Assembly: GCA_963662515.1 (NCBI GenBank)
Contig: OY759675.1
Location: 773,473 to 837,472 of the forward strand
DNA from: Sedimentisphaerales bacterium
Lineage (GTDB): Bacteria > Planctomycetota > Phycisphaerae > Sedimentisphaerales > SM23-30
Direction of reading: 5' to 3'
DNA length: 64,000 nucleotides
Part shown: positions 4,280 through 63,653 of the stretch, piece by piece
Layout: the number at the start of each line of letters is the position of its first letter
Position numbering within the stretch: the first letter of the stretch is position 1
Notes under the pieces: model-generated
Told to the model about the DNA's origin: nothing
Databases searched by the model: none
What the model saw: only the letters and a program-made list of their open reading frames with translations
Translations under genes and position numbers: made by a program

Positions 4280-4425
4280 TTTCAGGTCTTTCCTGTATAT
4301 ATCTGCTATAAAAATGCTATTATCTCCTAATAATATCGTAAAAATAGCCCGAGGCAATGAATATTTGCCGTTTTGTTAGAATTAGTGAGGTATGATTGTG
4401 TCTGTATGGCACATATATTAGTATC

Positions 4426-4469
4426 AGAAAAACGAAAAAGCCCGTTAAGCAAAGCTTAGTCGGGCTTTT
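4426..4469 (-). terminator. putative rho-independent terminator of the MCP gene
   Basis: On the minus strand, AAAAGCCCG..CGGGCTTTTTCGTTTTT forms a stem followed by a T-run, about 30 nt after the MCP stop. Confidence 0.5.
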
Positions 4470-4496
4470 ATCGTGCATGGTGTGTTGTTTTAATCT

Positions 4497-5933
4497 CTAT
4501 TTATCAGTGCCAACCAGTTCAACGAGCTGGCTGACTACTTCATTCATTATTCTGGCCTGAGAGTCGATCTCATCGGCGGCATTAGCTGAATCTTCCACAT
4601 TGCAGGCATTAGTCTGTGTTACCTTGTCAATGGCAGAGACCGCCGAATTTAACTGTTGTATGCCTTCTGCCTGTTCGCTGTAAGCGATGCTGATCTCTTC
4701 TTCCAGTTTGGCAACAAATTCAATTGATTCGTTAATGGCCTCAAAGCTCTTGCCGACCTCTCCGACAATAGAAACGCCGCTCATGGCATTCTGGACTGAT
4801 TTTTCGATCAGTTGTGCGGTACTGCTGGCGGCCTGGGCCGACCTCATGGCCAGGTTACGAACTTCCTCGGCAACAACGGCAAATCCTTTGCCAGACTCTC
4901 CGGCACGAGCCGCTTCAACTGCGGCATTAAGAGCCAGCAGATTGGTCTGGAAGGCTATTTCGTTAATAGTTTTAACGATGGCCTGAGTTTCCTGTGAAGA
5001 GCGATTTATTTCCTGTATAGCCTGATTCATTCTGGTCATGGCCTCTATGCCGTTCTTAGATGAGTTACTGGCTTTGATAACATGTTTATTAGCTTCTTTA
5101 GTCTTGGCTACATTGCCTTCTGTCATGGTTGACATTTCTTCCAGTGAGGCAGAAGATTCTTCCAGGCCGGCAACCTGCTCATTTGTACCGTCCTTAATAA
5201 CAATGGCACTGGTCTTGATCTTGCCCGACATTTCGGTAAGCTGCTGACCAGCGGTACAAAGCTGGTTGATAACAGTATTGATAGGTCCTATAACAGATTT
5301 GCTGATGACAAACCAGGTTATTGCCAGGGCCACCAGGGCCAGACTGCCTGCTACTACAAGCAGGGTAATGTTCAGTTTGTTGGTATTGCTTGCTACCTGA
5401 GCCAGAGACGACTTAAGGTATCCGGCCATGTCAGTAGCCAGAGTTTCAAATTTGGCGAAATATTCATCTTTTTGTTTAGCAATTGACCCGGCCATTGACT
5501 CAGCCTGCTCGGTTGTCATGCCGGTGTTGGTGTCGCCAGCCATTGTGCCATATACTTTATTGGCTTTGGCAGTATAGTTCTTGTATTCTTCAACAAGCTT
5601 ATTGATCTCGATTATTTTGTCTTTACTTACGGCATTGTCGGTTACTATTGAGCCAAGAGCATTCTGTATGCTGTCGCTTTCGGCCTGAGCCAGTTTGATG
5701 TTTTCCACTTCGCCCAGCATTACTGCGTCCATGTATAACTTGGTCTGATTTTTGAAGGCGGCAAATGCCTGCTGGCTGTTTTGTGTGGCCGGGAATACTT
5801 TTTCGGCTATCTGGCTTAGCTTTTGACCATTCTGTGTGCCCAGAATATAACTGGCAAGAGAATTAGCCAGAATACCGACGAGCAAAATACCTACTACTGC
5901 CCATAGTTTTGCTTTAATGCCTATTTTTCTCAT
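4497..5933 (-). CDS. methyl-accepting chemotaxis protein
   Basis: 478 aa. It has an N-terminal TM segment, a ~170-aa periplasmic-like region and a second TM segment. The highly conserved MCP signalling hairpin is present ([39 protein letters not shown]). Confidence 0.9.
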
Positions 5934-7824: not shown

Positions 7825-8283
7825 ATGAAGTTATTAAGAGCGACAATGATGGTTCTGGCAGTGTTTGGTGTTATGTTGACACAGACGGCCAGTGCTCAGG
7901 AAGTGGCCGCATCAGACATAGTGCTGGTGGCCAATGCCGATGTGCCGGGTACGACGCTGGACGCAGCGACCGTAGAAAATATCTTTACCGGTAAGACCTC
8001 ATCGGTAGGTGATAAGAAAGTAGAGATCACCATATTAAAAGCCGGAGCTGTGCATGAGGCATTCTTAAAACATTATATTAAGAAGACCGACAGTCAGTTC
8101 ATCAACAGTTGGAAGAAACTGGTATTTTCCGGTAAGAGCAAGATGCCCAAAGACTTTGCCACAGAAAAAGAGATGGTAGAGTATATAGCCAAGACTTCCG
8201 GTGCTATCGGTTATGTGCATGTTAATACTTCCAAGGATGGCAGTATTATGACAGACAAGGTTAAGGCAATAACAATTAAATAA
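7825..8283 (+). CDS. small secreted protein, copy 1 (resembles short PstS/PBP-like_2 substrate-binding-domain proteins)
   Basis: 152 aa with signal peptide MKLLRATMMVLAVFGVMLTQTASAQE. Motifs ..IFTGK...W..LVFSGKSKMP......E.V.YIA.T.GAIGYV recall phosphate-binding-protein-like domains. The functional call is tentative. Confidence 0.75.
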   Translation: MKLLRATMMVLAVFGVMLTQTASAQEVAASDIVLVANADVPGTTLDAATVENIFTGKTSSVGDKKVEITILKAGAVHEAFLKHYIKKTDSQFINSWKKLVFSGKSKMPKDFATEKEMVEYIAKTSGAIGYVHVNTSKDGSIMTDKVKAITIK

Positions 8284-8307
8284 TGGGATATGGTGAGGAT
8301 ACAGACT

Positions 8308-9486
8308 ATGAATAGGTATATAACATTAATAGCTATTATTATTACAGTTTTATTTATGACTGTTCCGGCCTCAGCTCTTGAGCTGGATATGACAGAAATA
8401 GGCTTCCCGATCGATAAGATCGAGATGCACGGCTTCTTTTCACAGGGTTATATGAAAAGCACCAATAATGATCTGTATGGAGACAGTCGTGATGGAACAT
8501 TAGACCTGCGTGACTTTGGCGTTAACTTTTCCGGTAATCTTACAGATGATCTGAGATTAGCGGCACAGTTTACTGGCTATTCGCTGGGTGAGCAGGGTGG
8601 CGATAAGATCAATCTGCATTATGGTTATGCTGATTACAGGCTTGTCGATGCTCTTGGTTTTCGTCTTGGTCGTGTTCGTGTGCCATCTGGTCTTTATAAT
8701 GAGACTCGTGACATTGATATGGTTCGCACCCATGTTTTCATGCCCCAGAGTGTTTATCCGGAAGAATATCGTGATTATTATGCTTCGGCAGATGCTTTTG
8801 TAACTTATGGTGGTGTTGACATGGAATCACTGGGCTTTTTGTCCTATCAGGGTCATGTTGGCAGATTGATAAATGATGATGATCCGGTAAGTGATGTGCC
8901 GCTTAGTATGCGTGCGCAAGGGTTAGAGAACAATGTATTTACCGATGGTCATAGCGCCGGAGCCCAGTTATTGTGGGAAACACCGGTTCAGGGTCTGCGT
9001 ACAGGCTGGACCTGGCGTCGCATAGACAACAATATGAGTAGTGAGTTTACTATACCAGGCGTGGGTACATTCCCGGTCCATACTCCTATAAAGAATGTTT
9101 CATTGCAGGTATGGTCATTAGAGTATGTAATAGATCGTCTTACTCTGATGAGTGAGTATTCCTATGTTTCAATAGACAGTGTTCCAAATTTCACAGGCTG
9201 GTACGCCGGTGCTGATTATGCTCTGACTGATAAGTTTTCTATAGGTGGTAACTATAGTCGTTACTCTTTGGAGCGTGGTGCCAGACCTGGTATCAATCCG
9301 GAGGATATTTACGGTCATCAGAATACAGTATCTGTTTATGGTAAGTATGACATAACAGCCAACTGGCTTATAAAGGCTCAGGTAGATATGAATCGCGGTT
9401 TAGCCCGCTATCAGGGCTTTTCTCGCTCGGCAGATGATGAGCTGGAAAGCATGTTATTCTCAGTTAAGACCACCTGGTCATTCTGA
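8308..9486 (+). CDS. outer-membrane beta-barrel (porin-like) protein, paralog 1
   Basis: Signal-like N-terminus (MNRYITLIAIIITVLFMTVPASALE), an alternating-hydrophobicity strand pattern and the C-terminal beta-signal ..SVKTTWSF (terminal Phe). The RBS GGTGAGGA lies 8 nt upstream. Confidence 0.8.
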   Translation: MNRYITLIAIIITVLFMTVPASALELDMTEIGFPIDKIEMHGFFSQGYMKSTNNDLYGDSRDGTLDLRDFGVNFSGNLTDDLRLAAQFTGYSLGEQGGDKINLHYGYADYRLVDALGFRLGRVRVPSGLYNETRDIDMVRTHVFMPQSVYPEEYRDYYASADAFVTYGGVDMESLGFLSYQGHVGRLINDDDPVSDVPLSMRAQGLENNVFTDGHSAGAQLLWETPVQGLRTGWTWRRIDNNMSSEFTIPGVGTFPVHTPIKNVSLQVWSLEYVIDRLTLMSEYSYVSIDSVPNFTGWYAGADYALTDKFSIGGNYSRYSLERGARPGINPEDIYGHQNTVSVYGKYDITANWLIKAQVDMNRGLARYQGFSRSADDELESMLFSVKTTWSF

Positions 9487-9512
9487 TAAGTATCTTTAAG
9501 TCAAAAAGTTGT

Positions 9513-9544
9513 AGCCGCAGGGGAAAATTCTCTGCGGCTTTTTA
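9513..9544 (+). terminator. rho-independent terminator after barrel 1
   Basis: AGCCGCAG-loop-CTGCGGCT followed by TTTTT. Confidence 0.7.
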
Positions 9545-9583
9545 TCCGTAATACAATATTTCCTATGGTATGGAGATGAAAAA

Positions 9584-10042
9584 ATGAAATTACTAAGAGC
9601 GACATTGATGGTATTGGCAGTGTTTGGTGTTATGTTGACACAGACGGCCAGTGCTCAGGAAGTGGCCGCATCAGACATAGTGCTGGTGGCCAATGCCGAT
9701 GTGCCGGGTACGACGCTGGACGCAGCGACCGTAGAAAATATCTTTACCGGTAAGACCTCATCGGTAGGTGATAAGAAAGTAGAGATCACCATATTAAAAG
9801 CCGGAGCTGTGCATGAGGCATTCTTAAAACATTATATTAAGAAGACCGACAGTCAGTTCATCAACAGTTGGAAGAAACTGGTATTTTCCGGTAAGAGCAA
9901 GATGCCCAAAGACTTTGCCACAGAAAAAGAGATGGTAGAGTATATAGCCAAGACTTCCGGTGCTATCGGTTATGTGCATGTTAATACTTCCAAGGATGGC
10001 AGTATTATGACAGACAAGGTTAAGGCAATAACAATTAAATAA
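9584..10042 (+). CDS. small secreted PBP-like protein, copy 2
   Basis: Nucleotide-identical to copy 1 from about codon 13 to the stop. The protein differs only at residue 8 (M to L). Confidence 0.75.
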   Translation: MKLLRATLMVLAVFGVMLTQTASAQEVAASDIVLVANADVPGTTLDAATVENIFTGKTSSVGDKKVEITILKAGAVHEAFLKHYIKKTDSQFINSWKKLVFSGKSKMPKDFATEKEMVEYIAKTSGAIGYVHVNTSKDGSIMTDKVKAITIK

Positions 10043-10065
10043 TGGGATATGGTGAGGATATGATA

Positions 10066-11244
10066 ATGAATAAGTATATAACAAAAATAGTGATGTTTAC
10101 GACAGCCTTGTTTATGGCTGTTCCTGTACTGGCGATAGAGCTGGACACAACTGAGATAGGTTTCCCAATCGAGAAGGTTGAGATGCACGGCTTCTTCGCC
10201 CAGGGCTATATGAAGAGTTCAAATAACAGCGTTTTTGGTGAAAGTCATGATGGTACACTTGATCTGCGTGACTTTGGTGTTAACTTCTCTGGCTATCTGA
10301 CAGAAGATATTCTTTTAGCTGTGCAGTTTATGGGTTACAGCCTGGGCGACCAGGGTGGTGACAAGATCAATCTGCATTATGGTATATTTGACTATAACTA
10401 TTGTGATGAACTTGGCTTCAGGGCCGGGCGTGTGCGTGTTCCGCTGGGGTTGTACAATGAGACTCGAGATATTGACATGCTTCGTACGAGCATCTTCCTG
10501 CCTCAGAGTGTTTACCCGGAGACCAGTCGTGATTATTTTGCTTCGACTGATGCGGTTTCTCTGTATGGTGGATTTGATCTGGAAGAAATGGGTTTCCTGT
10601 CATATCAGACCCATATAGGCAAGCTGATAAATGATGATGACCCAACCAGTGACCTGACATATCTCTTCAGGGGGCTGGGATTTTACGATATGCATTATGA
10701 AAATGGTAATAGTGCCGGAGCTCAGTTGTTGTGGGATACTCCGGTTCAGGGGTTGCGTACAGCCTGGAGCTGGCGTCGTATAGATAATACTGCTATAGGT
10801 ACAATTGAAGTTCCCGGCGTAGGTCCTTTGGCAATTCCGATAACAGTTACCAACCATTGTAATCAGGTCTGGTCAGTTGAATATCAGATAGATAAGCTGA
10901 CACTTTCAGCTGAGACCAGCAGAGTGACAATTGATGGTCTGCCGGATGCTACTGGTTGGTATGCCGGTGCAAATTATGAGATAACAGAAAAGTTCTCATT
11001 GGGCGGCAATTATAGTAGGTATGCTTACGATCGTGGTAATGCCTCAGGTACAAATCCTGATCTGATGAATGGTTTTCAGCATACAGTATCGCTTTATGGT
11101 AAGTACAATATCACACCAAGCTGGATAGTGAAGGCTCAGGTTGATATGAACAGAGGTACTGCGTTAAATCAGAATTTCTCTCGTACAGCAGGCGATGAAC
11201 TGGAAAGCACACTGTTTGCAGTTAAGACCAGCTGGTCATTCTGA
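10066..11244 (+). CDS. outer-membrane beta-barrel protein, paralog 2
   Basis: Same architecture as paralog 1 and ends AVKTSWSF. There are many substitutions and indels relative to paralog 1, especially at LINDDDPTSDLTYLFRGLGFYDMHYENGNS. Confidence 0.8.
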   Translation: MNKYITKIVMFTTALFMAVPVLAIELDTTEIGFPIEKVEMHGFFAQGYMKSSNNSVFGESHDGTLDLRDFGVNFSGYLTEDILLAVQFMGYSLGDQGGDKINLHYGIFDYNYCDELGFRAGRVRVPLGLYNETRDIDMLRTSIFLPQSVYPETSRDYFASTDAVSLYGGFDLEEMGFLSYQTHIGKLINDDDPTSDLTYLFRGLGFYDMHYENGNSAGAQLLWDTPVQGLRTAWSWRRIDNTAIGTIEVPGVGPLAIPITVTNHCNQVWSVEYQIDKLTLSAETSRVTIDGLPDATGWYAGANYEITEKFSLGGNYSRYAYDRGNASGTNPDLMNGFQHTVSLYGKYNITPSWIVKAQVDMNRGTALNQNFSRTAGDELESTLFAVKTSWSF

Positions 11245-11271
11245 TAATTATCCTTTAAGTCAAAAAATTGT

Positions 11272-11302
11272 AGCCGCAGGAGGGGGCTCCTGCGGCTTTT
11301 TG
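11272..11302 (+). terminator. rho-independent terminator after barrel 2
   Basis: AGCCGCAGG-loop-CCTGCGGCT followed by TTTTT. It is homologous to the terminator at 9513. Confidence 0.7.
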
Positions 11303-11341
11303 TCCGTAATACAATGTTTCCTATGGTATGGAGATGAAAAA

Positions 11342-11800
11342 ATGAAATTACTAAGAGCGACATTGATGGTATTGGCAGTGTTTGGTGTTATGTTGACACA
11401 GACAGCCAGTGCTCAGGAAGTGGCCGCATCAGACATAGTGCTGGTGGCCAATGCCGATGTGCCGGGTACGACGCTGGACGCAGCGACAGTAGAAAATATC
11501 TTTACCGGTAAGACCTCATCAGTAGGTGATAAGAAAGTAGAGATCACCATATTAAAAGCCGGAGCTGTGCATGAGGCCTTCTTAAAACATTATATTAAGA
11601 AGACCGACAGTCAGTTCATCAACAGTTGGAAGAAACTGGTATTTTCCGGTAAGAGCAAGATGCCCAAAGACTTTGCCACAGAAAAAGAGATGGTAGAGTA
11701 TATAGCCAAGACTTCCGGTGCTATCGGTTATGTGCATGTTAATACTTCCAAGGACGGCAGTATTATGACAGACAAGGTTAAGGCGATAACAATTAAATAA
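11342..11800 (+). CDS. small secreted PBP-like protein, copy 3
   Basis: Protein identical to copy 2. Six third-position nucleotide differences were seen by eye. The ORF-track start at 11195 reads through the terminator and is not credible. Confidence 0.75.
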   Translation: MKLLRATLMVLAVFGVMLTQTASAQEVAASDIVLVANADVPGTTLDAATVENIFTGKTSSVGDKKVEITILKAGAVHEAFLKHYIKKTDSQFINSWKKLVFSGKSKMPKDFATEKEMVEYIAKTSGAIGYVHVNTSKDGSIMTDKVKAITIK

Positions 11801-11823
11801 TGGGATATGGTGAGGATATGATC

Positions 11824-13008
11824 ATGGATAAGTATATAACAAAAATAGCAATGGTTATGACAGCCTTGTTTATGGCTGTTCCTGTGCTGGCGATAGAGTT
11901 TAATACTGCTGAGATAGGGTTCCCGATTGAAACAGTTGAAGTTCATGGATTTTTCAGCCAAGGTTATATGAAAAGCTCTAATAATAATGTATATTCCAAA
12001 TCACATGAAGGTACTTTGGATCTTAGGGATTTTGGTATAAACTTTTCTGGGTATCTAACAGAGGATATTCGGCTAGCGGCTCAATTTATGGGCTATTCGC
12101 TGGGAGATCTTGGAAAAGACCATATTAACCTGCATTATGGTTATGTTGACTATAACATAGCAGATGAACTTGGTTTCCGTGCAGGTCGTGTTCGTGTGCC
12201 GGCAGGTTTGTATAATGAGACTCGAGATATTGATATGCTCAGAACAAGTATTTTTTTACCACAAAGTGTATATCCTGAAGTATATCGAGATTTCTTTGCC
12301 TCTGTTGATGCGGTTTCAATTTATGGTAATATTGATTTAAATGATTTAGGGTCATTAAACTATTCAGCGCATGTTGGTACTTTGGTTAATGACGAAGACC
12401 CGGCCAGTGACCTGCCGTTTTTATATGGCAGCTCAGGTTTGTATGATATCTATTTTGACCGTGGATGTTCAGCTGGTGCTCAGCTTGTATGGTACACTCC
12501 TGTTAATGGTTTGGTTTTAGGCTGGACATGGCGTAGAATAGATAATATTATTCAAGCCAAAGTTGACACCCCCGGTGGGACAATTAATGTTACCCCAGAA
12601 ATTGATAATTTTGGCACTCAGATTTGGTCGGTTGAGTACACAACTGGGAAGTTGGTGCTAAATGGTGAGCTTACGGTTCTGACTGAACACAGAAACGGAA
12701 CTGGTCCGGCTGCTATGGGTTGGTACACCGGGGCAGAATATGAGTTGACCGACAAGTTTTCTGTAGGTGGTAATTATAGTACATATCATAATGAGGCAGG
12801 GGCGTCTTTCTTACGAAGGGCAGATCCGGTTCAGAATTATGAGGACACATTCTCTGTTTACGGTTGTTATGATATAACAGATAGCTGGCTGGTGAAGGCT
12901 CAGGTAGATTACAATAAAGGAACAGGCCGTCATCGTAATTCATATTCTTCCGCTACAGATGAGATCGATAGTGTGCTGTTTTCAGTTAAGACCACCTGGT
13001 CATTCTGA
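11824..13008 (+). CDS. outer-membrane beta-barrel protein, paralog 3
   Basis: Same family (GFPIE..HGFFSQGYMKSSNN..YNETRDIDMLRTSIFLPQSVYPE) and ends SVKTTWSF. Confidence 0.8.
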   Translation: MDKYITKIAMVMTALFMAVPVLAIEFNTAEIGFPIETVEVHGFFSQGYMKSSNNNVYSKSHEGTLDLRDFGINFSGYLTEDIRLAAQFMGYSLGDLGKDHINLHYGYVDYNIADELGFRAGRVRVPAGLYNETRDIDMLRTSIFLPQSVYPEVYRDFFASVDAVSIYGNIDLNDLGSLNYSAHVGTLVNDEDPASDLPFLYGSSGLYDIYFDRGCSAGAQLVWYTPVNGLVLGWTWRRIDNIIQAKVDTPGGTINVTPEIDNFGTQIWSVEYTTGKLVLNGELTVLTEHRNGTGPAAMGWYTGAEYELTDKFSVGGNYSTYHNEAGASFLRRADPVQNYEDTFSVYGCYDITDSWLVKAQVDYNKGTGRHRNSYSSATDEIDSVLFSVKTTWSF

Positions 13009-13273
13009 TATTAGCTAAATATTCAAGCATGGAAGCTCCAGTGTAAAATCTGCGGCTTTCATGCTTGTGATTTATCAGCTCCCAGAAACGAGTATGTTGT
13101 ATCAAGCATTGGTAATGTGGTGCCAGAGTATTAGATCAGATTGGGCGGGGGTCAGTCTGGTCATGTACTCTGGTAAGTAGTAAAAAGTTTATTCTGGTCA
13201 GGGATGACAGAGTAAGTACAGATAAGGTTGGGGCGAGAGCCCTTAATAGAAGATTATTGTAAGGAGTTAAAAT

Positions 13274-14461
13274 ATGTATAGATCGATGATTAAAGTAGCA
13301 TTAGTTTTTGCTGGTTTGTGTCTGGCGGTGCCGGTTTCGGCTATAGAGCTGGATACAACTGAGATCGGTTTCCCGATCGAGAAGATCCAGATGCATGGTT
13401 TCTTTTCGCAGGGTTTTATGAAGAGTTCCAATAATGATGTATATGAAGGCAGTCGTGATGGTTCCTTTGACCTGCGTGAGTATGGCGTGAATTTTAGTGG
13501 CAATCTTACCGATGAACTGCTGCTGGCTGCCCAGATTATGGGGTATAGCCTGGGTGGGCAGGGCGGTGATGAAATATTTCTGCATTATGGTCTGGCTGAT
13601 TATCGGGTGAACGATAATTTTGGTATAAGGGCCGGTCGTATGCGTATCCCGGCGGGTCTTTATAATGAGACTCGCGATATTGACATGGTGCGTAAGTCAG
13701 TTATTTTACCACAGAATGTATATTCAGAATATTATCGCGATTACTACTCAGCTCTCGATGGTGGTAGTATTTACGGTGGCTTTGATCTGGATGATCTGGG
13801 TTATCTCTCATATCAGGCCGGTATAGGCAAGCCGATAACTAATGAGAGTGAAACGGGTGATTTTCCTTATAATTTTGGTGCCTTTGGGAATGGTGTAGTA
13901 GAAGGTCTCCGTAATATAAGCTATGCTGAAACTCATAGTGCCAATTTTCAGTTACTTTATGAGACCCCGGTAGATGGTCTGCGTGTAGGATATACCTGGC
14001 GTCGGCTTGATGCTGAATTTGCCGGCGAAGGTTGGGTGCCGGCCTTTGGTGTATGGGTGCCAATGAGTTTAGATATGAAAAACTATGTTAATCAGATATA
14101 TTCAATAGAGTATCAGGTAGGTCGTTTGACGCTGGTAACCGAAGCAGTGGTTCGTACCTCTGATGGTACCAAGCAGAATCAGGGCTGGTACAGTGGCATA
14201 GATTATGATCTGACCGATAAACTTGGTGCTGGTGTTTATTATGCTGAGTATGTTTCTACTGATGAATCAACTGATTATAAGAAGGCTGACCAGAAGACTA
14301 TTTCGCTTTTCAGTCGTTATAATATAACTGATAGCTGGCTGGTAAAAGGGCAGGTTGACTTTAACGATGGTAATGGTAATGCCCCGTGGCCGACCAAGAG
14401 ATATGCTACAGACGGCGGCGACAGTGTATTGTTCTCAGTAAAGACCACCTGGTCGTTCTGA
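13274..14461 (+). CDS. outer-membrane beta-barrel protein, paralog 4 (no preceding small gene)
   Basis: Same family. It has its own RBS (TAAGGAG), is the most diverged of the four, and ends SVKTTWSF. Confidence 0.8.
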   Translation: MYRSMIKVALVFAGLCLAVPVSAIELDTTEIGFPIEKIQMHGFFSQGFMKSSNNDVYEGSRDGSFDLREYGVNFSGNLTDELLLAAQIMGYSLGGQGGDEIFLHYGLADYRVNDNFGIRAGRMRIPAGLYNETRDIDMVRKSVILPQNVYSEYYRDYYSALDGGSIYGGFDLDDLGYLSYQAGIGKPITNESETGDFPYNFGAFGNGVVEGLRNISYAETHSANFQLLYETPVDGLRVGYTWRRLDAEFAGEGWVPAFGVWVPMSLDMKNYVNQIYSIEYQVGRLTLVTEAVVRTSDGTKQNQGWYSGIDYDLTDKLGAGVYYAEYVSTDESTDYKKADQKTISLFSRYNITDSWLVKGQVDFNDGNGNAPWPTKRYATDGGDSVLFSVKTTWSF

Positions 14462-56710: not shown

Positions 56711-56839
56711 GGCAGTACTTTAAGATTTTTCTTAAATAAAGTAAAGCATAACTTTGTAATTTGTTGTTTCGATGCAATTGGCAGATAAAGCCTGGTTTTG
56801 GTACTGGATTTTTTGTGCGAAATTACTATACTTTGCCCT

Positions 56840-57256
56840 ATGGAAAATCCGCTTAACAAAATAGCATCATTTCAGGGGCTGGGCATTACAGTTGTCCGGG
56901 ACGATGACGATAATGTCGTGCTGCAAATGCCTTTGTCTGGTAATACCAATGACAAAGGAACGATGTTTGCCGGGTCGATCTATTCGCTTATGGTACTGGC
57001 CGGCTGGAAACTGGCTATGAACTCTGCCGATGCCGCCGGCAAGCCCGGCAATGTAGTCATTAGCGATGCCTCGGTCAAATACCTCAGACCCATCACTCAA
57101 GATTGTCAGGCAACAGCCCAACTGACCCGCCCATATTTTGTAAACACCTACGGAAGCGGATGTTGTGATATAAGAGTAACCATTATAAACGCCCAAAACA
57201 AACTCTGTGCCGACTTTGCCGGCCAATACCGCATTCTGCCAGAGACAGGTACCTGA
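56840..57256 (+). CDS. hotdog-fold thioesterase (YiiD C-terminal-like)
   Basis: 138 aa with NDKGTMFAGSIYSLMVLAGW typical of PaaI/YiiD-type thioesterases. I preferred ATG 56840. Confidence 0.6.
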   Translation: MENPLNKIASFQGLGITVVRDDDDNVVLQMPLSGNTNDKGTMFAGSIYSLMVLAGWKLAMNSADAAGKPGNVVISDASVKYLRPITQDCQATAQLTRPYFVNTYGSGCCDIRVTIINAQNKLCADFAGQYRILPETGT

Positions 57257-57360
57257 ACTGAGCCAAACCAAAATCAGCATTTTCAGCAGAAGAATTTCAA
57301 TAACACCCTGCAGTTAAACATCTTAAACGAAACTGTACTTAGTACATTTAATTGTACTCT
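57110..57360 (+). repeat. direct repeat copy 1 (thioesterase 3' end + spacer + REP motif)
   Basis: Collinear with 63347-63600, with scattered mismatches (roughly 9 in 10 positions match, by eye). Confidence 0.85.
57322..57356 (+). repeat. REP-like hairpin motif i
   Basis: CTTAAACGAAACTGTACTTAGTACATTTAATTGTA, with core hairpin TGTAC-TTA-GTACA. Confidence 0.7.
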
Positions 57361-57396
57361 TTATGTTTAAAAGCAGAACAGAATTGGGACAGTCAC

Positions 57397-58883
57397 GAAT
57401 GGCGGTAGATTAAGGAAATTATAGACAAAAAGCCTCCGCAGCCGATAGGTGTAGTAACAACAAAACACTTTCGACAAGGAGGCTATTATGTCTGCTATGG
57501 ATTTCGGCAAAAACAGAGGTAAAACTTTAGGAATTTCTGATAAGTTGGAAGATTGTACACTCAATTCAATTCGCAAAGTATTGTCTGACGCTATGATTGA
57601 ACGGGCATGTCGCAGTTGTAATTATCATTTCCGTCACAGGGTGATCACCCCGGTGGTAGTCGTATTACACCTGATAATGTCAGCGATGTGGCCGGAAGAT
57701 TCGTTTAATGCAAGTTGGCAGACAATCTGGGCGAATTTGGTTGCCAGCAATTATTCACTTGCTGGTCATTGTCCTGCCCGTGGATCTGTGAGTACGGCGA
57801 GAAACCATTTGCCTCTGGCTGTAATGAAAGAGATATTTAATTATCTTTCGCAATTGGCACAGAAATTATCAGAAAGGTATGACAAGTGGAGAGGTCACCG
57901 AGTTGTTCTTGTTGATGGTACATGTTTTACCACAGCTGACAATGCCCAATTGGAAAAGGAATTTGGGGTTCCTTTTGGCTTTCATGGCAAGGGTCGATAT
58001 CCTCTGGTCCGGCTTGTTACATTATGCCTGAGTAATACTATGACTATACTCAATTACAATGTTGGCAGATATGCCACCGATGAAAATGCCCTTCTGGAGC
58101 CAATGCTTAAAACACTCAGAAAAGGCGATTTGCTGCTGGCGGACCGGCATTATGCCGGGGCAAACCTGTATTGGCGTTATCTGCAGAATGGTCTGGAATT
58201 TCTGACAAGGGTTAATCAGAACCTCAAGATGTCTAAAGTTAAGCCATTACTGAAGTATAGCACTAATGATTTTATTGGCTATATGAAAGTATCAGCTATT
58301 CATTGTCGGAATAATCCAGACTTGCCAGAGAAGATAAAAGTGAGATTTATACGAGCTGAAATTACTATTCGCGGCAGGAAATCCTCTTTCTGGTTCGTCA
58401 CTTCCCTGTTGGATGCCGACCGTTATCCAGCAGAGGAAATTGTCGGTCTTTACGCTGACCGCTGGCGAATAGAGACTCTGCTTCGGGAAGTAAAAATCAA
58501 TGCTCATGCTGATATTTTACGCAGCCAGAAAGTTGAAGGGGTTTACCGGGAAATAGCAGCCAGAATGTCAGCGATAAATGTAATAAGGAACATAATGCTG
58601 GAAGCTGCTGTTGAACATAATATAGAGGACCCGCTCAGAATAAGTTTTTGTGAAACAGTACGGATAATTCTGGCCTTTGCCCCAGTAATGGCCATTCGCC
58701 CGATACAACAATTGCCCGTGATATATAATGCGATGCACAGAGAAATAGTCAGTCATCTGGTCCCATGGAGACCAGGCAGGAACGAACCAAGAGCAATAAC
58801 CCACGAACCAAAACATTACCCCAAATTAAAGGAAACCAGAGAACAATGGAGAAACACCTATGCCGCTTAATCTACCGCCATTC
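57397..58883 (+). mobile_element. IS4-family insertion sequence (1487 bp) with 18-bp IRs and 11-bp target-site duplication
   Basis: IRL is GAATGGCGGTAGATTAAG (57397-57414). IRR is CTTAATCTACCGCCATTC (58866-58883). The direct repeat GGGACAGTCAC abuts both ends (57386-57396 and 58884-58894). Confidence 0.9.
57488..58870 (+). CDS. IS4-family DDE transposase
   Basis: Contains VLVDGTCF, LLLADRHYAG and YADRWRIETLLREVK (the Y-2-R-3-E-6-K signature). The stop codon lies inside IRR. Confidence 0.9.
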   Translation: MSAMDFGKNRGKTLGISDKLEDCTLNSIRKVLSDAMIERACRSCNYHFRHRVITPVVVVLHLIMSAMWPEDSFNASWQTIWANLVASNYSLAGHCPARGSVSTARNHLPLAVMKEIFNYLSQLAQKLSERYDKWRGHRVVLVDGTCFTTADNAQLEKEFGVPFGFHGKGRYPLVRLVTLCLSNTMTILNYNVGRYATDENALLEPMLKTLRKGDLLLADRHYAGANLYWRYLQNGLEFLTRVNQNLKMSKVKPLLKYSTNDFIGYMKVSAIHCRNNPDLPEKIKVRFIRAEITIRGRKSSFWFVTSLLDADRYPAEEIVGLYADRWRIETLLREVKINAHADILRSQKVEGVYREIAARMSAINVIRNIMLEAAVEHNIEDPLRISFCETVRIILAFAPVMAIRPIQQLPVIYNAMHREIVSHLVPWRPGRNEPRAITHEPKHYPKLKETREQWRNTYAA

Positions 58884-58901
58884 GGGACAGTCACCGATTT
58901 T

Positions 58902-58925
58902 GTAAGCGAAACTATACCTGGTACC
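58902..58925 (+). repeat. degenerate REP-like motif ii
   Basis: GTAAGCGAAACTATACCTGGTACC, compared with the consensus TTAAACGAAACTGTACTTAGTACA. Confidence 0.4.
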
Positions 58926-58952: not shown

Positions 58953-59159
58953 TTACATTCCATCTTCAATTTCAAGGCGTGTCAACAGGTGAAAGTAGTG
59001 ACATTGCTTATTAGCATTAGTTTTATTAAGACGCTCTACCTCCAAATTAGCACGCTCTAAAGTTAATACAACTTTCTTCACTGTTATCCTAGACTGAATA
59101 TCACAGTCATCTAGAAAATCATCGGACCTAATAATTGCATATACATGTTTTGTAGTCAT
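58953..59159 (-). CDS. putative immunity protein of cassette C
   Basis: 68-aa ORF whose ATG overlaps the toxin stop (ATGA). Confidence 0.55.
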   Translation of the reverse strand: MTTKHVYAIIRSDDFLDDCDIQSRITVKKVVLTLERANLEVERLNKTNANKQCHYFHLLTRLEIEDGM

Positions 59160-59482
59160 TTTATTGCTTTAGCTCCTCCCTCAGTTAAATATCCAAGTAA
59201 TTCTCGAGTATTTGCATGATATACACCACCAGTTTTATCGAATATAACATCAGGATTGCCCGTTATACCTTCCTTTATGGCATGTAATCGTTCGCTTGCA
59301 AGTTTTGGATCAATACCATGATATTCTTTTAACCTTCTTGTTACCTCATCCCAGTTTTTGATTGGTTTGTAATCATCTGGGAGTTTGTACACATTCTTCA
59401 TCGCCTTATTATGCACCAGCACGCCGGAGGCGGTTACGGCATAATTATGATATTGGACTACGGCGAGGTTGTAAACCTTTAT
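59156..59482 (-). CDS. orphan polymorphic-toxin C-terminal cassette C (Hint-tail leader + ~80-aa unknown toxin tip)
   Basis: The open frame reads IKVYNLAVVQYHNYAVTASGVLVHNKAMKNVYKL...GGAKAIK*. There is no ATG at the leader, and the ORF track starts at the internal GTG (59422). Confidence 0.65.
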   Translation of the reverse strand: MKVYNLAVVQYHNYAVTASGVLVHNKAMKNVYKLPDDYKPIKNWDEVTRRLKEYHGIDPKLASERLHAIKEGITGNPDVIFDKTGGVYHANTRELLGYLTEGGAKAIK

Positions 59483-59483
59483 T
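59403..59483 (-). repeat. conserved leader repeat, copy C
   Basis: Near-identical nucleotide block encoding (K)VYNLAVVQYHNYAVTASGVLVHNKA. Confidence 0.9.
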
Positions 59484-59994
59484 TACATATGCCAAATTTA
59501 TTTTTTAGAAAACTGATAACTTTTTTCATCTCTTCCAACGGACAAGTAGTAAGCTCGTCACATGAAGCTAAGCCATTATCAATCGCATACTGACTTGGGC
59601 CATATTTGCAACAATTTTTCATATACGATGGATAATCATAATTTGCATATATTTCCTGTAATCGCTCGATTTTATCTTCAGGTGAACTTGTGCTATCGGC
59701 AAGAACTATGAGTTCTACCAATAACCACTTTTCCAAACATTCATAATCATTATCTATAGTAGAACAAATAAGCTGTTCAAGAAAATATTTTAATTCATCT
59801 TCTTTACAATCTTCTGCACCAGCCAAAAGACTAATATATTTATTGTACTCTCCTGAAGAGTCTTGAAGAGATTTTACTGCAAAGTTTATTATGTCAGACT
59901 TTGTTACTAATTTTCTCTCAAAGCCAACTAAAAGCACATTCCAATCAATCAGCCCCCAAGCCTCAAGGATCTCAATAGGTTTCTTAAAAAGCAT
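59479..59994 (-). CDS. putative immunity protein of cassette B
   Basis: 171-aa acidic, Cys-containing ORF. Its ATG overlaps the toxin stop by 1 nt (TAATG). Confidence 0.6.
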   Translation of the reverse strand: MLFKKPIEILEAWGLIDWNVLLVGFERKLVTKSDIINFAVKSLQDSSGEYNKYISLLAGAEDCKEDELKYFLEQLICSTIDNDYECLEKWLLVELIVLADSTSSPEDKIERLQEIYANYDYPSYMKNCCKYGPSQYAIDNGLASCDELTTCPLEEMKKVISFLKNKFGICK

Positions 59995-60407
59995 TATTTA
60001 CCTCCAGGTAGTTGATTTGGGTATCCTGTTACATTGCCGTCTGGTATAAATCTTCGATGAGTAACGGCTTGATTGTCAATAATCCACTCGAATAAGCCTG
60101 CATTTCCGTTCAAACTTCCTTTAATCTGATACAAGTCAGCATTACCAATAACCTTTCCTCCCGGTCCTTTGGTAGGAATCGTGAAATATTGTGCTTCAGG
60201 TACGAAATTATCAATAATGCCTGGGAAAGAATGTTGCACATCTTGTTTGAGAGCACTTCCTATTCTTGGTAATCCTTGAATTGGATTCTCATACGGACTA
60301 TACAGAGCCTTATTATGCACCAGCACGCCAGAGGCGGTTACGGCGTAATTATGGTGTACTACGGCGAGGTTGTAAACCTTTATTTTGGCCGGGTTCGTAA
60401 GTGTATT
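59994..60407 (-). CDS. orphan polymorphic-toxin C-terminal cassette B (Hint-tail leader + ~100-aa unknown toxin tip)
   Basis: The open frame reads ..AKIKVYNLAVVHHNYAVTASGVLVHNKALYSPYENP...GLFEWIIDNQAVTHRRFIPDGNVTGYPNQLPGGK*. Confidence 0.65.
   Translation of the reverse strand, partial: NTLTNPAKIKVYNLAVVHHNYAVTASGVLVHNKALYSPYENPIQGLPRIGSALKQDVQHSFPGIIDNFVPEAQYFTIPTKGPGGKVIGNADLYQIKGSLNGNAGLFEWIIDNQAVTHRRFIPDGNVTGYPNQLPGGK
60307..60390 (-). repeat. conserved leader repeat, copy B (one codon shorter)
   Basis: Same block as 61041-61127 with a 3-nt deletion (VVQYHNY becomes VVHHNY). Confidence 0.9.
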
Positions 60408-60411
60408 TTAA

Positions 60412-60696
60412 TCACTCTCTCAAGGATTTATTCCAAAAAATGAACTTACTGTAAAGGTTGCCATCAAATACAGGGGCTTTATTGAGACCCATTTCGCAAA
60501 TCAGATCACACCACTGTTTAAAATTGTATCCAGATGGAGCCTGCTTCGTTTTCATCAATTCGATGATAAGGCCTTCAAAAGCCATTTCGTATTCTCCATG
60601 TATATAATAATGATCTACTTCACTAATAGCATCTTCAGATAGAATTCTTCTTGATGCTTCAATAATAATTCCAATTTGATTTTCTAGTGTCATCAT
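60412..60696 (-). CDS. putative immunity protein of cassette A
   Basis: The ATGATG start at 60696 lies 10 nt after the toxin stop, with AAGGA as RBS. The product is ~94 aa. The longer ORF-track version (to 60846) overlaps the toxin. Confidence 0.55.
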   Translation of the reverse strand: MMTLENQIGIIIEASRRILSEDAISEVDHYYIHGEYEMAFEGLIIELMKTKQAPSGYNFKQWCDLICEMGLNKAPVFDGNLYSKFIFWNKSLRE

Positions 60697-60706
60697 TAAA
60701 TTCCTT

Positions 60707-61189
60707 TTATGGATTTTTAGGTGTATTAAGAGGGTAGCTTGTAGATATTCGGCCTGGATATGTAGTGTGACTATCTGGATAAAAATCAACTCGAATTTGA
60801 ACTCCATCTCGAGTTCCGATTGAATATGGAGAGTCCCATTTTCCAATCCCTCTTATTGCCCCAGGGTCAGTTGCAACATCAGATACGTTATGTAAAATTT
60901 CGCCATCACTCCAACTTGCCGGGAATTCTGTTTTACCCGACATCCCAGCCCCACTTCTGTGGCGGTTCAAGATATGTGTACTTCTAAAATCTGTCAGATC
61001 AACAAGATTAGTAGTTGGTTCACTATATGGACTATGCAGAGCCTTATTATGCACCAGCACGCCGGAGGCGGTTACGGCGTAGTTATGATATTGGACTACG
61101 GCGAGGTTGTAAACCTTTATTTTGGCCAGGCGGGTGGGAAAATAAATGTACTTAGTACATTTATTTGTAAGTCTTTTAATAGTATGGTA
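60707..61189 (-). CDS. orphan polymorphic-toxin C-terminal cassette A (Hint-tail leader + EndoU-like RNase tip)
   Basis: Reads ..KVYNLAVVQYHNYAVTASGVLVHNKALHSPYSEPTT..FRSTHILNRHRSGAGMSGKTEFPASWSDGEILHNVSDVATDP..GTRDGVQIRVDF. This matches the bacterial EndoU toxin pattern (HIL..H....GKSEFP..WSD..I...ISDVATDP...GTRDGV.I.V) as I recall it. Homology to the other leaders begins near 61128. Confidence 0.65.
   Translation of the reverse strand, partial: YHTIKRLTNKCTKYIYFPTRLAKIKVYNLAVVQYHNYAVTASGVLVHNKALHSPYSEPTTNLVDLTDFRSTHILNRHRSGAGMSGKTEFPASWSDGEILHNVSDVATDPGAIRGIGKWDSPYSIGTRDGVQIRVDFYPDSHTTYPGRISTSYPLNTPKNP
61041..61127 (-). repeat. conserved leader repeat, copy A
   Basis: On the minus strand: GGCCAAAATAAAGGTTTACAACCTCGCCGTAGTCCAATATCATAACTACGCCGTAACCGCCTCCGGCGTGCTGGTGCATAATAAGGC. 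Confidence 0.9.
61141..61169. repeat. REP-like hairpin motif iii (11-bp stem)
   Basis: AATAAATGTAC-TTA-GTACATTTATT, ~110 bp upstream of the RAYT start. Confidence 0.7.
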
Positions 61190-61665
61190 TTATATAAATA
61201 TATCTGTTGAAAATGCAGATTTTGATATTGTGTTTTTTGTTTGGGATTTGACTTTTGTTTTGGTGCTGCCATAAGATTTTTATGCCCAGAACGAAGCGAA
61301 AGACAATAGGTGGTTACTTTTATCATGTTATGAATCGTGCTAATGGCCGGTTGCGGATATTTCAGAAAGAAGGCGATTATATCGCTTTTGAGAATGTTCT
61401 GGCTGAAGGGCAGGTTCGTACCGGTATGCGAATCTGTGGCTATTGCATAATGGGCAATCACTGGCACCTACTGCTCTGGCCCGAAAATGATGGTGACCTG
61501 TCGGATTTTATGCATTGGATAACGCTGACTCATGCCAGTCGCTATTGTCAATCCCCCATTTTTTGGGCCAGTCATAAGTGTAATAATTTACGATCTCACA
61601 CATTCACTTAGCTTTTTTTGTTTTGCCCCCTCGTAAGAGGATGGGGGGCAAAATAATAAAAGCGG

Positions 61666-62463
61666 TCAGCCAACTGCATTCAAATATCGTCCCGGTACTT
61701 CATTACCCAGAGATTCATGCGGTCGCTCATAATTGTATTCGTATATCCACCTATCGGTTATTTCTCTTACCTCCGACAGGCTGCCAAAGGCATACATATC
61801 CAATATCTCCTCCCGATAGGTACGATTGAATCTTTCGATAAATCCATTCTGGGCTGGTTTGCCCGGCTCTATAAATCCTATGGTCACATTATTCTTCTTT
61901 GCCCAGACTGATAAGACTGTCGATATAAACTCCGGGCCATTGTCACATCTGAGTTTCTTCGGATATGCACCTGAATGCATTGCCAGGGCTTCCAGGGTTC
62001 GGACCACTCGCTCGGAAGTCAGAGAATAATCTATCTCTATCGCCAGGCACATACGATTACTGTCATCTATTACATTAAAGGTTCTGAACCTTCTGCCGCT
62101 TGTCAGGCTGTCGCTCATAAAGTCTATCGACCAGCTGCTATTTATCTCCGCTGGAGCTGTTAATGGTTCTGGATTTCTTACCGGAAGACGCTTTTTAGGC
62201 CGTTTACGCATATTTAAGCCTTCTTCACAATATATACGATATACTCGCTTATGGTTATCTGCTATGCCTTGCTGACGCAATTTACTTAGCAGCTTCTTAA
62301 AGCCATATCTGCTATAGCGTACCGCCAGATCTTGCAGCATACCTGCTACAAGACTATCATCTTTTAACTTTGGCTCATACTCATACTGGCTTCTGGATAT
62401 ATCCAGTGCCCGGCAGGCGTGGCGTTTACTTAATCCGTATTCCGTTACCGCTTCTTGTGCCAA
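61666..62463 (-). CDS. IS3-family transposase OrfB (DDE integrase core)
   Basis: Contains WSIDFMSD, RCDNGPEF and the YNYERPHESLG region. The frame is open upstream to 62496. Confidence 0.9.
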   Translation of the reverse strand: MAQEAVTEYGLSKRHACRALDISRSQYEYEPKLKDDSLVAGMLQDLAVRYSRYGFKKLLSKLRQQGIADNHKRVYRIYCEEGLNMRKRPKKRLPVRNPEPLTAPAEINSSWSIDFMSDSLTSGRRFRTFNVIDDSNRMCLAIEIDYSLTSERVVRTLEALAMHSGAYPKKLRCDNGPEFISTVLSVWAKKNNVTIGFIEPGKPAQNGFIERFNRTYREEILDMYAFGSLSEVREITDRWIYEYNYERPHESLGNEVPGRYLNAVG

Positions 62464-62482
62464 CTCCTTCCTTTGAGCTGGC

Positions 62483-62749
62483 TTAGAAATGTTTTTCTAT
62501 CAGACCTTTTAATGCCCGATTCTCCAGGCTCAGTTCCGCAAACATCTGCTTCAACCGGCGGTTCTCGTCTTCCAGTTCCTTGAGCTTACGCATATCCGAT
62601 AATTCCATGCCGCCATACTTACTTCGCCATTTATAAATCGCACTCTGCGCTACGCCGTGCTTGCGACATAAATCACTTACCTTTACACCTGATTCCAGCT
62701 CTTTTAATACCGAAAATATCTCGCTCTCACTAAATCTTGATTTACGCAT
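62483..62749 (-). CDS. IS3-family transposase OrfA (HTH)
   Basis: Reads MRKSRFSESEIFSVLKELESGVKVSDLCRKHGVAQSAIYKWRSKYGG..LKELEDENRRLKQMFAELSLEN. Confidence 0.9.
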   Translation of the reverse strand: MRKSRFSESEIFSVLKELESGVKVSDLCRKHGVAQSAIYKWRSKYGGMELSDMRKLKELEDENRRLKQMFAELSLENRALKGLIEKHF

Positions 62750-63306
62750 AAGTTATGCTCTCCATTTGTATCTAACATAGTACCATTATACCATATTATT
62801 ACTCTTATGCATGGACCTATTTTAGGGGATACTTACCCTATCATGTGGCTCATGCCACGGCCGGCATGGGGCACATCTATAAAGGGACATATAAGAGTTT
62901 CCCTTTCCAGACTGGCCGCCATTATCTGCGGATATTGCGTTATGTAGAGGCCAACCCGCTTCGAGCCTCGCTGGTCAGTGAGCCGGGCCAATGGCCCTGG
63001 AGTAGCTACCACTTTCACTGCGGGCAGAGCGTTGCCAAGCCGCTGACTATCTGCCCCAGCCCGATCGAATTGCCCGGCAATTGGCCAGAGCAGGTTCGTA
63101 CGCCGGTCAGTCGTCACCATGCCGAGCAAATCGCAATTTCTATTAAAAGAGGCAGTCCGCTGGGTGATTCGGACTGGCAACAGCAAACCGCCGAAATACT
63201 AGAGATAAAACCAAGCATGAACCCAGTCGGTCGCCCCAGAATAATCATCGGGGAATAATCTGCATTTTCGACATATGAAGTAATATAACGCCTCTTTAGT
63301 AAATAT

Positions 63307-63346: not shown

Positions 63347-63600
63347 GCAACAGCCCAACTGACCCGCCCATATTTTTTAAACACTTACGGCAGCGGATGT
63401 TGTGATATAAGAGTAACCATTATAGACGCCCAGAACAAACTCTGTGCCGACTTCGCCGGCCAATACCGCATTCTGCCAGAGCCAAGTGCTTGAACCCAAG
63501 CCAAACCAAAATCAGCATTTTCAGCAGAAGAATTTATATAACATCCTGAAATTAAATATCTTAAACGAAACTGTACTTAGTACATTTAATTGTAATCTCT
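63347..63600 (+). repeat. direct repeat copy 2 (displaced thioesterase 3' fragment + spacer + REP motif v)
   Basis: The fragment would encode ATAQLTRPYFLNTYGSGCCDIRVTIIDAQNKLCADFAGQYRILPEPSA*. The intact gene end encodes ATAQLTRPYFVNTYGSGCCDIRVTIINAQNKLCADFAGQYRILPETGT*. REP motif v lies at 63560-63594. Confidence 0.85.
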
Positions 63601-63653
63601 ACGTTACAATAGGTTATCGCCACAACCCGCAATCAACTAACCATACAATGTGA

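Follow-up and report, generated by a model that had tools for sequence, protein, structure and literature searches.

The DNA analyzed here (the window) comprises 64,000 nt of a Sedimentisphaerales bacterium assembly (GCA_963662515.1, contig OY759675.1, positions 773,473 to 837,472 of the forward strand; coordinates below are those of the window), and its minus strand carries, at 58953-61135, an array of three cassettes placed head to tail. Every unit has the same order: a repeat of 82 to 100 nt that encodes the tail of a Hint domain, which we call the handle, is followed by a tip (83 to 112 amino acids [aa]) unrelated to the tips of the other units, and then by a tightly coupled small gene. 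With a probability of roughly 80%, we read the array as three displaced orphan toxin-tip/immunity cassettes of an Rhs-type polymorphic toxin system with a pretoxin HINT (PT-HINT) release module. Orphan cassettes of polymorphic toxin systems are already known, and the array adds one example.

The shared handle

A repeat search of the window recovers an 82-nt direct repeat in three copies (59403-59484, 60307-60388, and 61041-61122), and the window contains the handle 23-mer used in later scans three times, where shuffles would lead one to expect 0.00 occurrences. Translated, the repeat yields the C-terminal ~26 residues of a pretoxin HINT domain, …KVYNLAVV(Q)(Y/H)HNYAVTASGVLVHN|KA. Copies 1 and 3 read (A)KIKVYNLAVVQYHNYAVTASGVLVHNKA, from which copy 2 (60307-60388) differs by VVHHNY, the result of a 3-nt deletion that removes one codon. 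As delimited by the repeat, its translation, and codon alignment, the handles retain the last 26 to 30 codons of the Hint domain and lie, all on the minus strand, at 61046-61135 (handle 1, the 3′ end of a PT-HINT coding region, …AKIKVYNLAVVQYHNYAVTASGVLVHN, which is also placed by PF07591 and whose upstream side is truncated by a repetitive extragenic palindromic [REP] unit), at 60312-60394 (handle 2, the Hint tail with the one-codon deletion), and at 59408-59484 (handle 3, the shortest tail, whose start lies inside the stop codon of the small gene imm2). Downstream of HN, the three frames run into open sequences of 112, 105, and 83 aa, respectively, which profile-profile comparison finds to be mutually unrelated.

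Several comparisons place the handle within the PT-HINT domain. Its tail aligns to positions 107-136 of the 137 in PF07591 (PT-HINT) at E 0.008-0.012, with a score under the gathering cutoff because the fragment is short; a match to Intein_splicing is weak (E 0.03-0.06), and PT-HINT scores better. When 5.8 billion proteins are searched with a profile built from five tails, 11 weak, short PT-HINT fragments come back, every one of them annotated as PF07591 (11/11), and the tail motif agrees with the usual VYNFxVxDxHTYYVxxxGVLVHN of PT-HINT domains. Present in the handles are the C-terminal blocks that end in (V/I)(L/V)VHN. The complete Hint fold, with its N-terminal nucleophile block and TxxH block, is absent: the frames close upstream, and tblastn finds none in the 64 kb. 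The handles are PT-HINT fragments, not functional domains.

Translation signals differ between the handles and the small genes. The handles contain no ATG, and the sole in-frame start in them is a GTG that lacks a Shine-Dalgarno-like sequence upstream (CCTCCGGC), whereas the immunity genes have ATG starts, with AAGGA ahead of imm1 and GGAGG ahead of imm2. On the upstream side, the frame 5′ of cassette 1 crosses a perfect palindrome and closes at a TAA (61190-61192), 24 codons ahead of KVYN.

Much of this layout had been described in an earlier note made from the letters of this DNA and their translations, without database searches. The three head-to-tail minus-strand cassettes with a shared segment of ~26 aa are borne out by the repeat copies and their translations, and the claimed couplings (ATGA, TAATG, or 10-nt spacing) can be read at all three junctions. 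The note had likened the segment to the C-terminal blocks of Hint domains, with which the PF07591 alignment and the tail-profile matches agree. It was right that the C-terminal domains are unrelated, but the 60 to 100 aa given for their length is slightly low. Its statement that the frame upstream of cassette 1 closes at 61190-61192 and runs into a REP hairpin and a gene for a REP-associated tyrosine transposase (RAYT) is confirmed by the palindrome and by a REP_Tyr_transpos match, and its statement that no trunk lies in the window is upheld by tblastn with PT-HINT domains and an Rhs C-terminus.

An integron-like array was considered and rejected, with the handles, as single-stranded DNA, folding no better than shuffles (z -0.5 to -2.1). 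No integron integrase lies near the array; the only recombinase genes there are insertion sequence (IS) transposases and a broken RAYT gene. A search of the window against Rfam gives no match.

Toxin tips and their partner genes

Tip 1 (60707-61045 including the stop codon, minus strand) is a 112-aa domain that, to judge from its sequence, is a bacterial EndoU nuclease, i.e., an EndoU-type RNase toxin domain. It scores 30.9 bits against PF14436 (EndoU; Pfam cutoff, 25.3), is 60-73% identical to 58 EndoU tips that sit behind varied N-terminal modules (PT-HINT, Rhs, and others), and keeps H24, H29, and K38, three residues that do not vary among the 25 sequences, tip 1 included, of an alignment. 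Sequence searches of the PDB reach no solved structure. Its TAA is separated by 10 nt, including AAGGA, from the ATG of imm1 (60412-60696, minus strand), a 94-aa putative immunity protein for tip 1 named as such for this spacing and for a homologue at another locus, L010. There, a 2530-aa SpvB/TcdB/RHS toxin, its immunity gene, an orphan EndoU tip, and an imm1-like gene form a textbook layout, and the 96-aa gene behind the orphan tip is 28% identical to imm1 (E 8e-5). A resemblance of imm1 to MafI is weak and below threshold (E 0.039; 13.8 bits versus a cutoff of 31). The exact imm1 protein is present in the public protein collection.

Tip 2 (59994-60311, minus strand) is a 105-aa toxin domain belonging, by homologue search, to a large family: 738 homologues are found at E<=1e-3 among 1.84 billion cluster representatives. 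The domain ends <=5 residues from the C-terminus in 143 of the 150 best homologues (P0098-P0247), and in the long homologues the trunks consist of RHS repeats, SpvB/TcdB, or PT-HINT. No Pfam or NCBIfam model matches the family. A confident AlphaFold (AF2) model of tip 2 (pLDDT 89.8) has one helix packed on a 4-strand sheet, for which neither sequence searches of the PDB nor Foldseek against the PDB give a relative (nothing significant by the latter). Invariant residues of the family include R16, D24, E75, and H85-R86-R87, with T84 and F88 nearly invariant (THRRF). The partner gene, imm2 (59479-59994, minus strand), is coupled to the tip through TAATG, with GGAGG upstream, and encodes a 171-aa immunity protein of the DUF2247/Imm38 family (PF10004; E 1.1e-18, 67.9 bits, cutoff 25). 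The same pairing recurs in locus L011, where a 1117-aa RHS protein with a C-terminal tip-2 domain is directly followed by a DUF2247 gene whose product is 32% identical to imm2 (E 1e-28).

The partner bears on what tip 2 might be. In the catalogue of Zhang et al. 2012 (PMC3482391), DUF2247 goes by the name Imm38 and is paired with Ntox19. This toxin is predicted to be an RNase of alpha+beta BECR fold; its signature is D, H, DxxxR, E, HxxF, and its partner is either Imm38 or Imm40 (PMC3482391). Tip 2 conserves D24, H27, E75, and H85-R-R-F88 and has an Imm38 partner, and the DxxxR of the signature is not identified in it. Tip 2 may be an Ntox19-like RNase, an assignment that is reasonable but unproven.

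Tip 3 (59156-59407, minus strand) is an 83-aa toxin domain (HGIDPxLASERLHAIK…TGGVY…GGAK) with three homologues, P0095-P0097. One of these, P0095, has the tip behind a PT-HINT domain with an identical VLVHNKAM junction, and the other two, P0096 and P0097, have it behind the Rhs DPLGL motif (DPxGL). Tip 3 has no match in Pfam, NCBIfam, or the PDB, and its AF2 model (pLDDT 74) finds nothing significant by Foldseek against the PDB. A public gene call begins tip 3 at the in-frame GTG of the handle. Overlapping it by ATGA is imm3 (58953-59159, minus strand), a 68-aa putative immunity protein for tip 3 with a homologue in locus L008: here, a YD/Rhs protein leads, through a frameshift, into PT-HINT plus a tip-3 homologue, after which comes a 74-aa gene 55% identical to imm3 (E 4e-18).

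Each of the three tips has an open frame with its family's invariant residues intact, and all three are toxin domains that elsewhere occupy the extreme C-terminus of long multidomain proteins. The small open reading frames (ORFs) appear to be their cognate partners, with the three toxin/immunity pairings recurring at the independent loci L008, L010, and L011. Both roles had been proposed in the earlier note. For the tips, the proposal finds support in the EndoU score above the cutoff, the C-terminal position of tip 2 in its homologues, and the placement of tip 3 after PT-HINT or Rhs; for the small ORFs, it finds support in the recurrent pairings. The hidden Markov model searches of tips and immunity proteins that the note had recommended identify EndoU (tip 1) and DUF2247 (imm2) and leave tips 2 and 3 without a model.

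Also at L008, past a transposase, lies a pair of ORFs (148 and 234 aa, at 4420-5584 of that locus) with no Pfam match, which could be a further toxin/immunity cassette.

The handle in other genomes

A scan of the genome collection with the handle 23-mer finds one locus only, L001, on OY763926.1 from a different Sedimentisphaerales metagenome-assembled genome (MAG). This locus holds two cassettes, each consisting of a tip followed by a small ORF, and a ~325-nt repeat common to both, which in one cassette encodes an in-frame Hint remnant of ~70 aa and in the other is frameshifted. A truncated Mutator transposase lies upstream of the L001 cassettes, and the 5.7 kb on that side contain neither an Rhs nor a Hint trunk. 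Similarity between the window and L001 is limited to the handle, at 86-96% DNA identity. The two genomes are otherwise diverged: none of 10 housekeeping proteins of the window has a >=90% cluster mate from OY763926.1, although its proteome is in the collection. A short motif, CCTGACACCTTTTAATTTCCCC, recurs within L001 at 396-429, 1438-1471, 2559-2615, and 3337-3417, where it borders the cassettes and the truncated Mutator transposase.

Codon alignment of the five handle copies from the two genomes shows six codons that vary only synonymously and ~4 that vary nonsynonymously. These numbers are small, and the variation would fit purifying selection on the peptide or uniformity maintained through recombination or recent transfer; on this alignment, the handle looks selected.

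Beyond these two genomes, viral sequences scanned for the handle yield 0 matches. A metagenome scan with a codon-degenerate version of KVYNLAV…GVLVHN yields six loci, all generic inteins or PT-HINT toxins (L002 and L004 are genuine inteins) and none with the handle (0/6). Among them, the metagenome contig L005 encodes a long protein in which a tip accompanies a complete PT-HINT domain, and on L006, from the same study, an ORF opens 21 codons before the Hint tail of L005 (…EKTEKVIHDEPIKVYNFAV…GVLVHNSC) and continues into a different tip. Because of this ORF layout, Hint-tail-only orphan cassettes appear to exist in an unrelated lineage also.

Mobile-element neighborhood

Mobile elements lie on both sides of the array. 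The REP-containing unit that abuts truncated handle 1 (61140-61224, minus strand) has a perfect core palindrome, AAATAAATGTACTTAGTACATTTATTT, at 61140-61166. Such units, ~85 nt in length, occur in four copies in the window, three of them plus-oriented and this one inverted; it is an inverted copy of 57269-57353 and 63507-63591. Beyond it lies the RAYT gene (61255-63258, plus strand), whose halves (61255-61611 and 62845-63258) match positions 2-83 and 101-146 of NCBIfam NF047646 (REP_Tyr_transpos) and are split by an IS3-family element on the minus strand (OrfA, 62483-62749; OrfB, with rve and HTH_21 domains, 61666-62463). This RAYT copy is probably inactive. The junctions between the RAYT gene and the IS3 element read …AGTCGCTAT|TGTCAATCC… and …TTACCCTAT|CATGTGG…, and a 3-bp TAT duplication at the insertion is possible.

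Directly downstream of the array is an IS4-like element (57388-58892, plus strand; DDE_Tnp_1 and Nterm_IS4 domains) with 27-nt terminal inverted repeats that are 93% complementary. It has no recognizable target-site duplication, its flanks being …CAGAATTGG and ACCGATTTTG…. A second transposase at least 90% identical to that of the IS4-like element is encoded on the same chromosome, for which reason the junction may stem from recombination between IS copies. A degenerate REP-like sequence (58903-58925, plus strand) lies in the gap that separates imm3 from this element.

At a larger scale, a direct duplication of ~260 nt (57110-57367 and 63347-63605, 90% identity), composed of the 3′ end of a hotdog thioesterase gene (56798-57256) and the REP unit that follows it, brackets a ~6.2-kb block that includes the IS4-like element, the cassette array, and the RAYT gene with its IS3 insertion. 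This arrangement suggests that the block was inserted or rearranged as a unit.

Relation to known cassette systems

Solo toxin cassettes with immunity genes occur in polymorphic toxin loci whose toxins are released by HINT (Zhang et al. 2012, PMC3482391). The array is like them in its toxin-then-immunity order and in its unrelated tips joined to a constant pretoxin segment, and it shares with the same catalogue the EndoU/BECR RNases, Imm38 (= DUF2247), and Rhs trunks with HINT. It is unlike them in that the solo cassettes accompany a complete toxin gene, whereas here no trunk is detected in 64 kb and mobile elements bracket the array; the lineage (Sedimentisphaerales) and the lack of a Pfam model for tips 2 and 3 set it apart as well.

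Orphan rhs-CT/rhsI modules of Salmonella and other enterobacteria were reportedly described by Koskiniemi in 2014. Those of Salmonella (Starsta 2020, PMC7043789) likewise consist of truncated toxin genes that have a short conserved region in common with the main gene, each followed by an immunity gene. Their conserved region holds internal promoters, and the handles here carry promoter-like hexamers. In Salmonella, the orphan adjoins the main rhs gene and the shared region is the Rhs core with PxxxxDPxGL; here, the shared region is a Hint C-terminus, and no main gene is adjacent. Orphan cdiA-CT/cdiI modules, proposed to be toxin reservoirs or kin-discrimination determinants (PMC4725963), provide another parallel: they too form arrays of tip/immunity pairs, and their cdiA-CT modules are without initiation signals while the cdiI genes have them (PMC4725963), just as initiation signals are found here on the immunity genes and not on the tips. 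That system differs in its CdiB/CdiA two-partner secretion, its usual VENN junction, and the position of its modules downstream of cdiBAI; neither CdiA nor hemagglutinin repeats are found at the array.

The alternative mafB-CT/mafI cassettes of Neisseria, each a silent 3′ toxin end with an immunity gene, are located downstream of an expressed toxin gene and are exchanged by recombination. The array resembles them in pairing toxin ends with immunity genes, and imm1 has its weak, subthreshold match to MafI; the N-terminal module and the secretion route are different. Finally, polyimmunity loci resemble the array in grouping immunity genes of unrelated families in one orientation, frequently include DUF2247/Imm38, often lie beside recombinases, and by definition are never interrupted by toxin cassettes (PMC3482391). 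A polyimmunity locus was rejected as a description of the array, in which an intact tip precedes every immunity gene.

Interpretation of the array

Directly observed are the repeat itself, the identities of the domains, the conservation of the toxin/immunity pairings, and the lack of a detectable trunk in the window, and these observations are what leads us to orphan cassettes of an Rhs-type system. Judging from L008, L010, and L011, the parent would probably be an Rhs/YD (or TcdB-like) protein with PT-HINT. Several points weigh against this interpretation. No parent gene is detected in the window: when complete PT-HINT domains and an Rhs C-terminus serve as tblastn queries, the three tails are the only matches, and upstream of the array, where a full-length toxin gene sharing the handle might be sought, the 64 kb hold instead a REP unit, the RAYT gene with its IS3 insertion, and a duplicated gene fragment. 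A search of 5.8 billion public proteins, whose scope did not include the source genome's own, gives no near-identical tail; the sister genome has no trunk in the 5.7 kb upstream of its array; and the short handles (82-100 nt) and flanking mobile elements fit decay as well as they fit an archive. The observations also include no recombination event, cleavage, or toxicity. A silent archive that serves a parent gene elsewhere, as the array might be, is plausible but unproven.

Polymorphic toxin genes have a constant 5′ gene body that recombines with alternative 3′ cassettes, and the pairing of toxin and immunity gene within a cassette lets a single 3′ recombination swap both (PMC3482391). For the array, we infer that the cassettes recombine, that the Hint domain cleaves, that the tips are silent, and that the immunity genes are expressed, as follows. 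The Hint-tail sequence of 82-100 nt would act as a homology handle, at which a crossover with the identical 3′ segment of a full-length Rhs/PT-HINT gene would swap tip and immunity gene at once. The complete Hint domain of the exported product would then cut at HN|K and free the tip; cleavage after HN is established for Hint domains. Within the array itself, the tips are probably not made, since the one in-frame start that the handle offers has nothing like a Shine-Dalgarno sequence ahead of it. The immunity genes probably are made, since their ATG starts are preceded by AAGGA or GGAGG, and their products could protect against the same toxins delivered by neighbors.

The array might instead be a relic, its trunk lost or separated by an IS- or REP-associated rearrangement, with no compatible parent left, selection acting on the immunity genes only, and tips that are still intact because the loss is recent. 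We regard this as possible although improbable. Much of the neighborhood is what such a history would leave behind: truncated handle 1 adjoins a REP unit, with a broken RAYT gene farther upstream, the IS4-like element shows no target-site duplication, the 260-nt, 90% duplication brackets the whole 6-kb block, and the sister array, with one of its Hint remnants frameshifted, sits behind a truncated Mutator transposase. The failure to find a near-identical tail on any long public protein (in a search that did not extend to the source genome's own proteins) points in the same direction. Against a relic stand the three open tips with their family invariant residues, the mostly synonymous variation of the handle, and the 86-96% DNA identity of the handle in a genome whose housekeeping proteins are <90% identical; the synonymous bias and this handle identity would be unexpected for unselected sequence, unless transfer was very recent.

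Distinctly unlikely, in our estimation, is self-expression, in which a promoter within the handle and its in-frame GTG (MLVHNK…) produce tip and immunity protein inside the cell in the manner of a toxin-antitoxin pair. The three best promoter-like matches of the region (10 of 12) fall at the same place in each handle (minus strand, 61085-61113, 60348-60376, and 59447-59475), reading TTTACA-17-TATCAT and lying ~25 nt upstream of the GTG; in the deletion copy (handle 2), CATAAT shifts into the 17-nt spacing instead of TATCAT. In Salmonella, main and orphan rhs tips are expressed from internal promoters of the shared conserved region (PMC7043789), and the public gene call opens tip 3 at the handle GTG. 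However, promoter-like sites are not enriched in the region (12 versus a shuffle mean of 10.9), Planctomycetota may not follow the sigma-70 consensus, the GTG is not preceded by anything resembling a Shine-Dalgarno sequence, and the hexamers fall in codons that Hint function constrains anyway. More doubtful still, and offered as speculation, is a broader role for the handle as a DNA-level docking sequence common to diverged Sedimentisphaerales: cassettes would move between species, carried by IS or REP/RAYT rearrangements, and persist without a parent, with the handle promoter driving at least the immunity genes.

We assign almost no weight to the notion that the handles have nothing to do with toxin delivery and are what is left of true self-splicing inteins or homing elements. 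The weak Intein_splicing match and the capture of genuine inteins (L002 and L004) by the degenerate pattern scan speak for it. Yet the residue after HN, at +1, is Lys and not the Cys, Ser, or Thr that splicing requires; past the junction lie a toxin domain and an immunity gene, not a host extein; and PT-HINT outscores the intein model, with all tail-profile matches being PT-HINT. On the +1 residue and the toxin past the junction, the intein reading was rejected.

As orphan toxin-tip/immunity cassettes, the three units extend this design to Sedimentisphaerales, an anaerobic sediment lineage of Planctomycetota, and do so with a shared handle that is a Hint C-terminus rather than an Rhs core or a VENN motif. 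The accepted picture of polymorphic toxin systems is unchanged by the array. Tips 2 and 3 represent toxin families without a Pfam model or a solved structure and are worth describing. With two diverged genomes that carry arrays lacking a nearby trunk and share a near-identical DNA handle, one can now ask of such arrays whether they serve as live reservoirs or as immunity banks, or whether they are relics.

Other features of the window

The other large ORFs of the window, with translations judged by eye, resemble a sensor kinase, beta-helix surface proteins, and sugar-acid metabolism genes. At 7825-14461, four paralogues of ~400 aa stand in tandem (8290-9486, 10042-11244, 11800-13008, and 13274-14461); all four end in …FSVKTTWSF, and each of the first three is preceded by an ORF of 152-201 aa. 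The region looks like a duplicated outer-membrane protein module.

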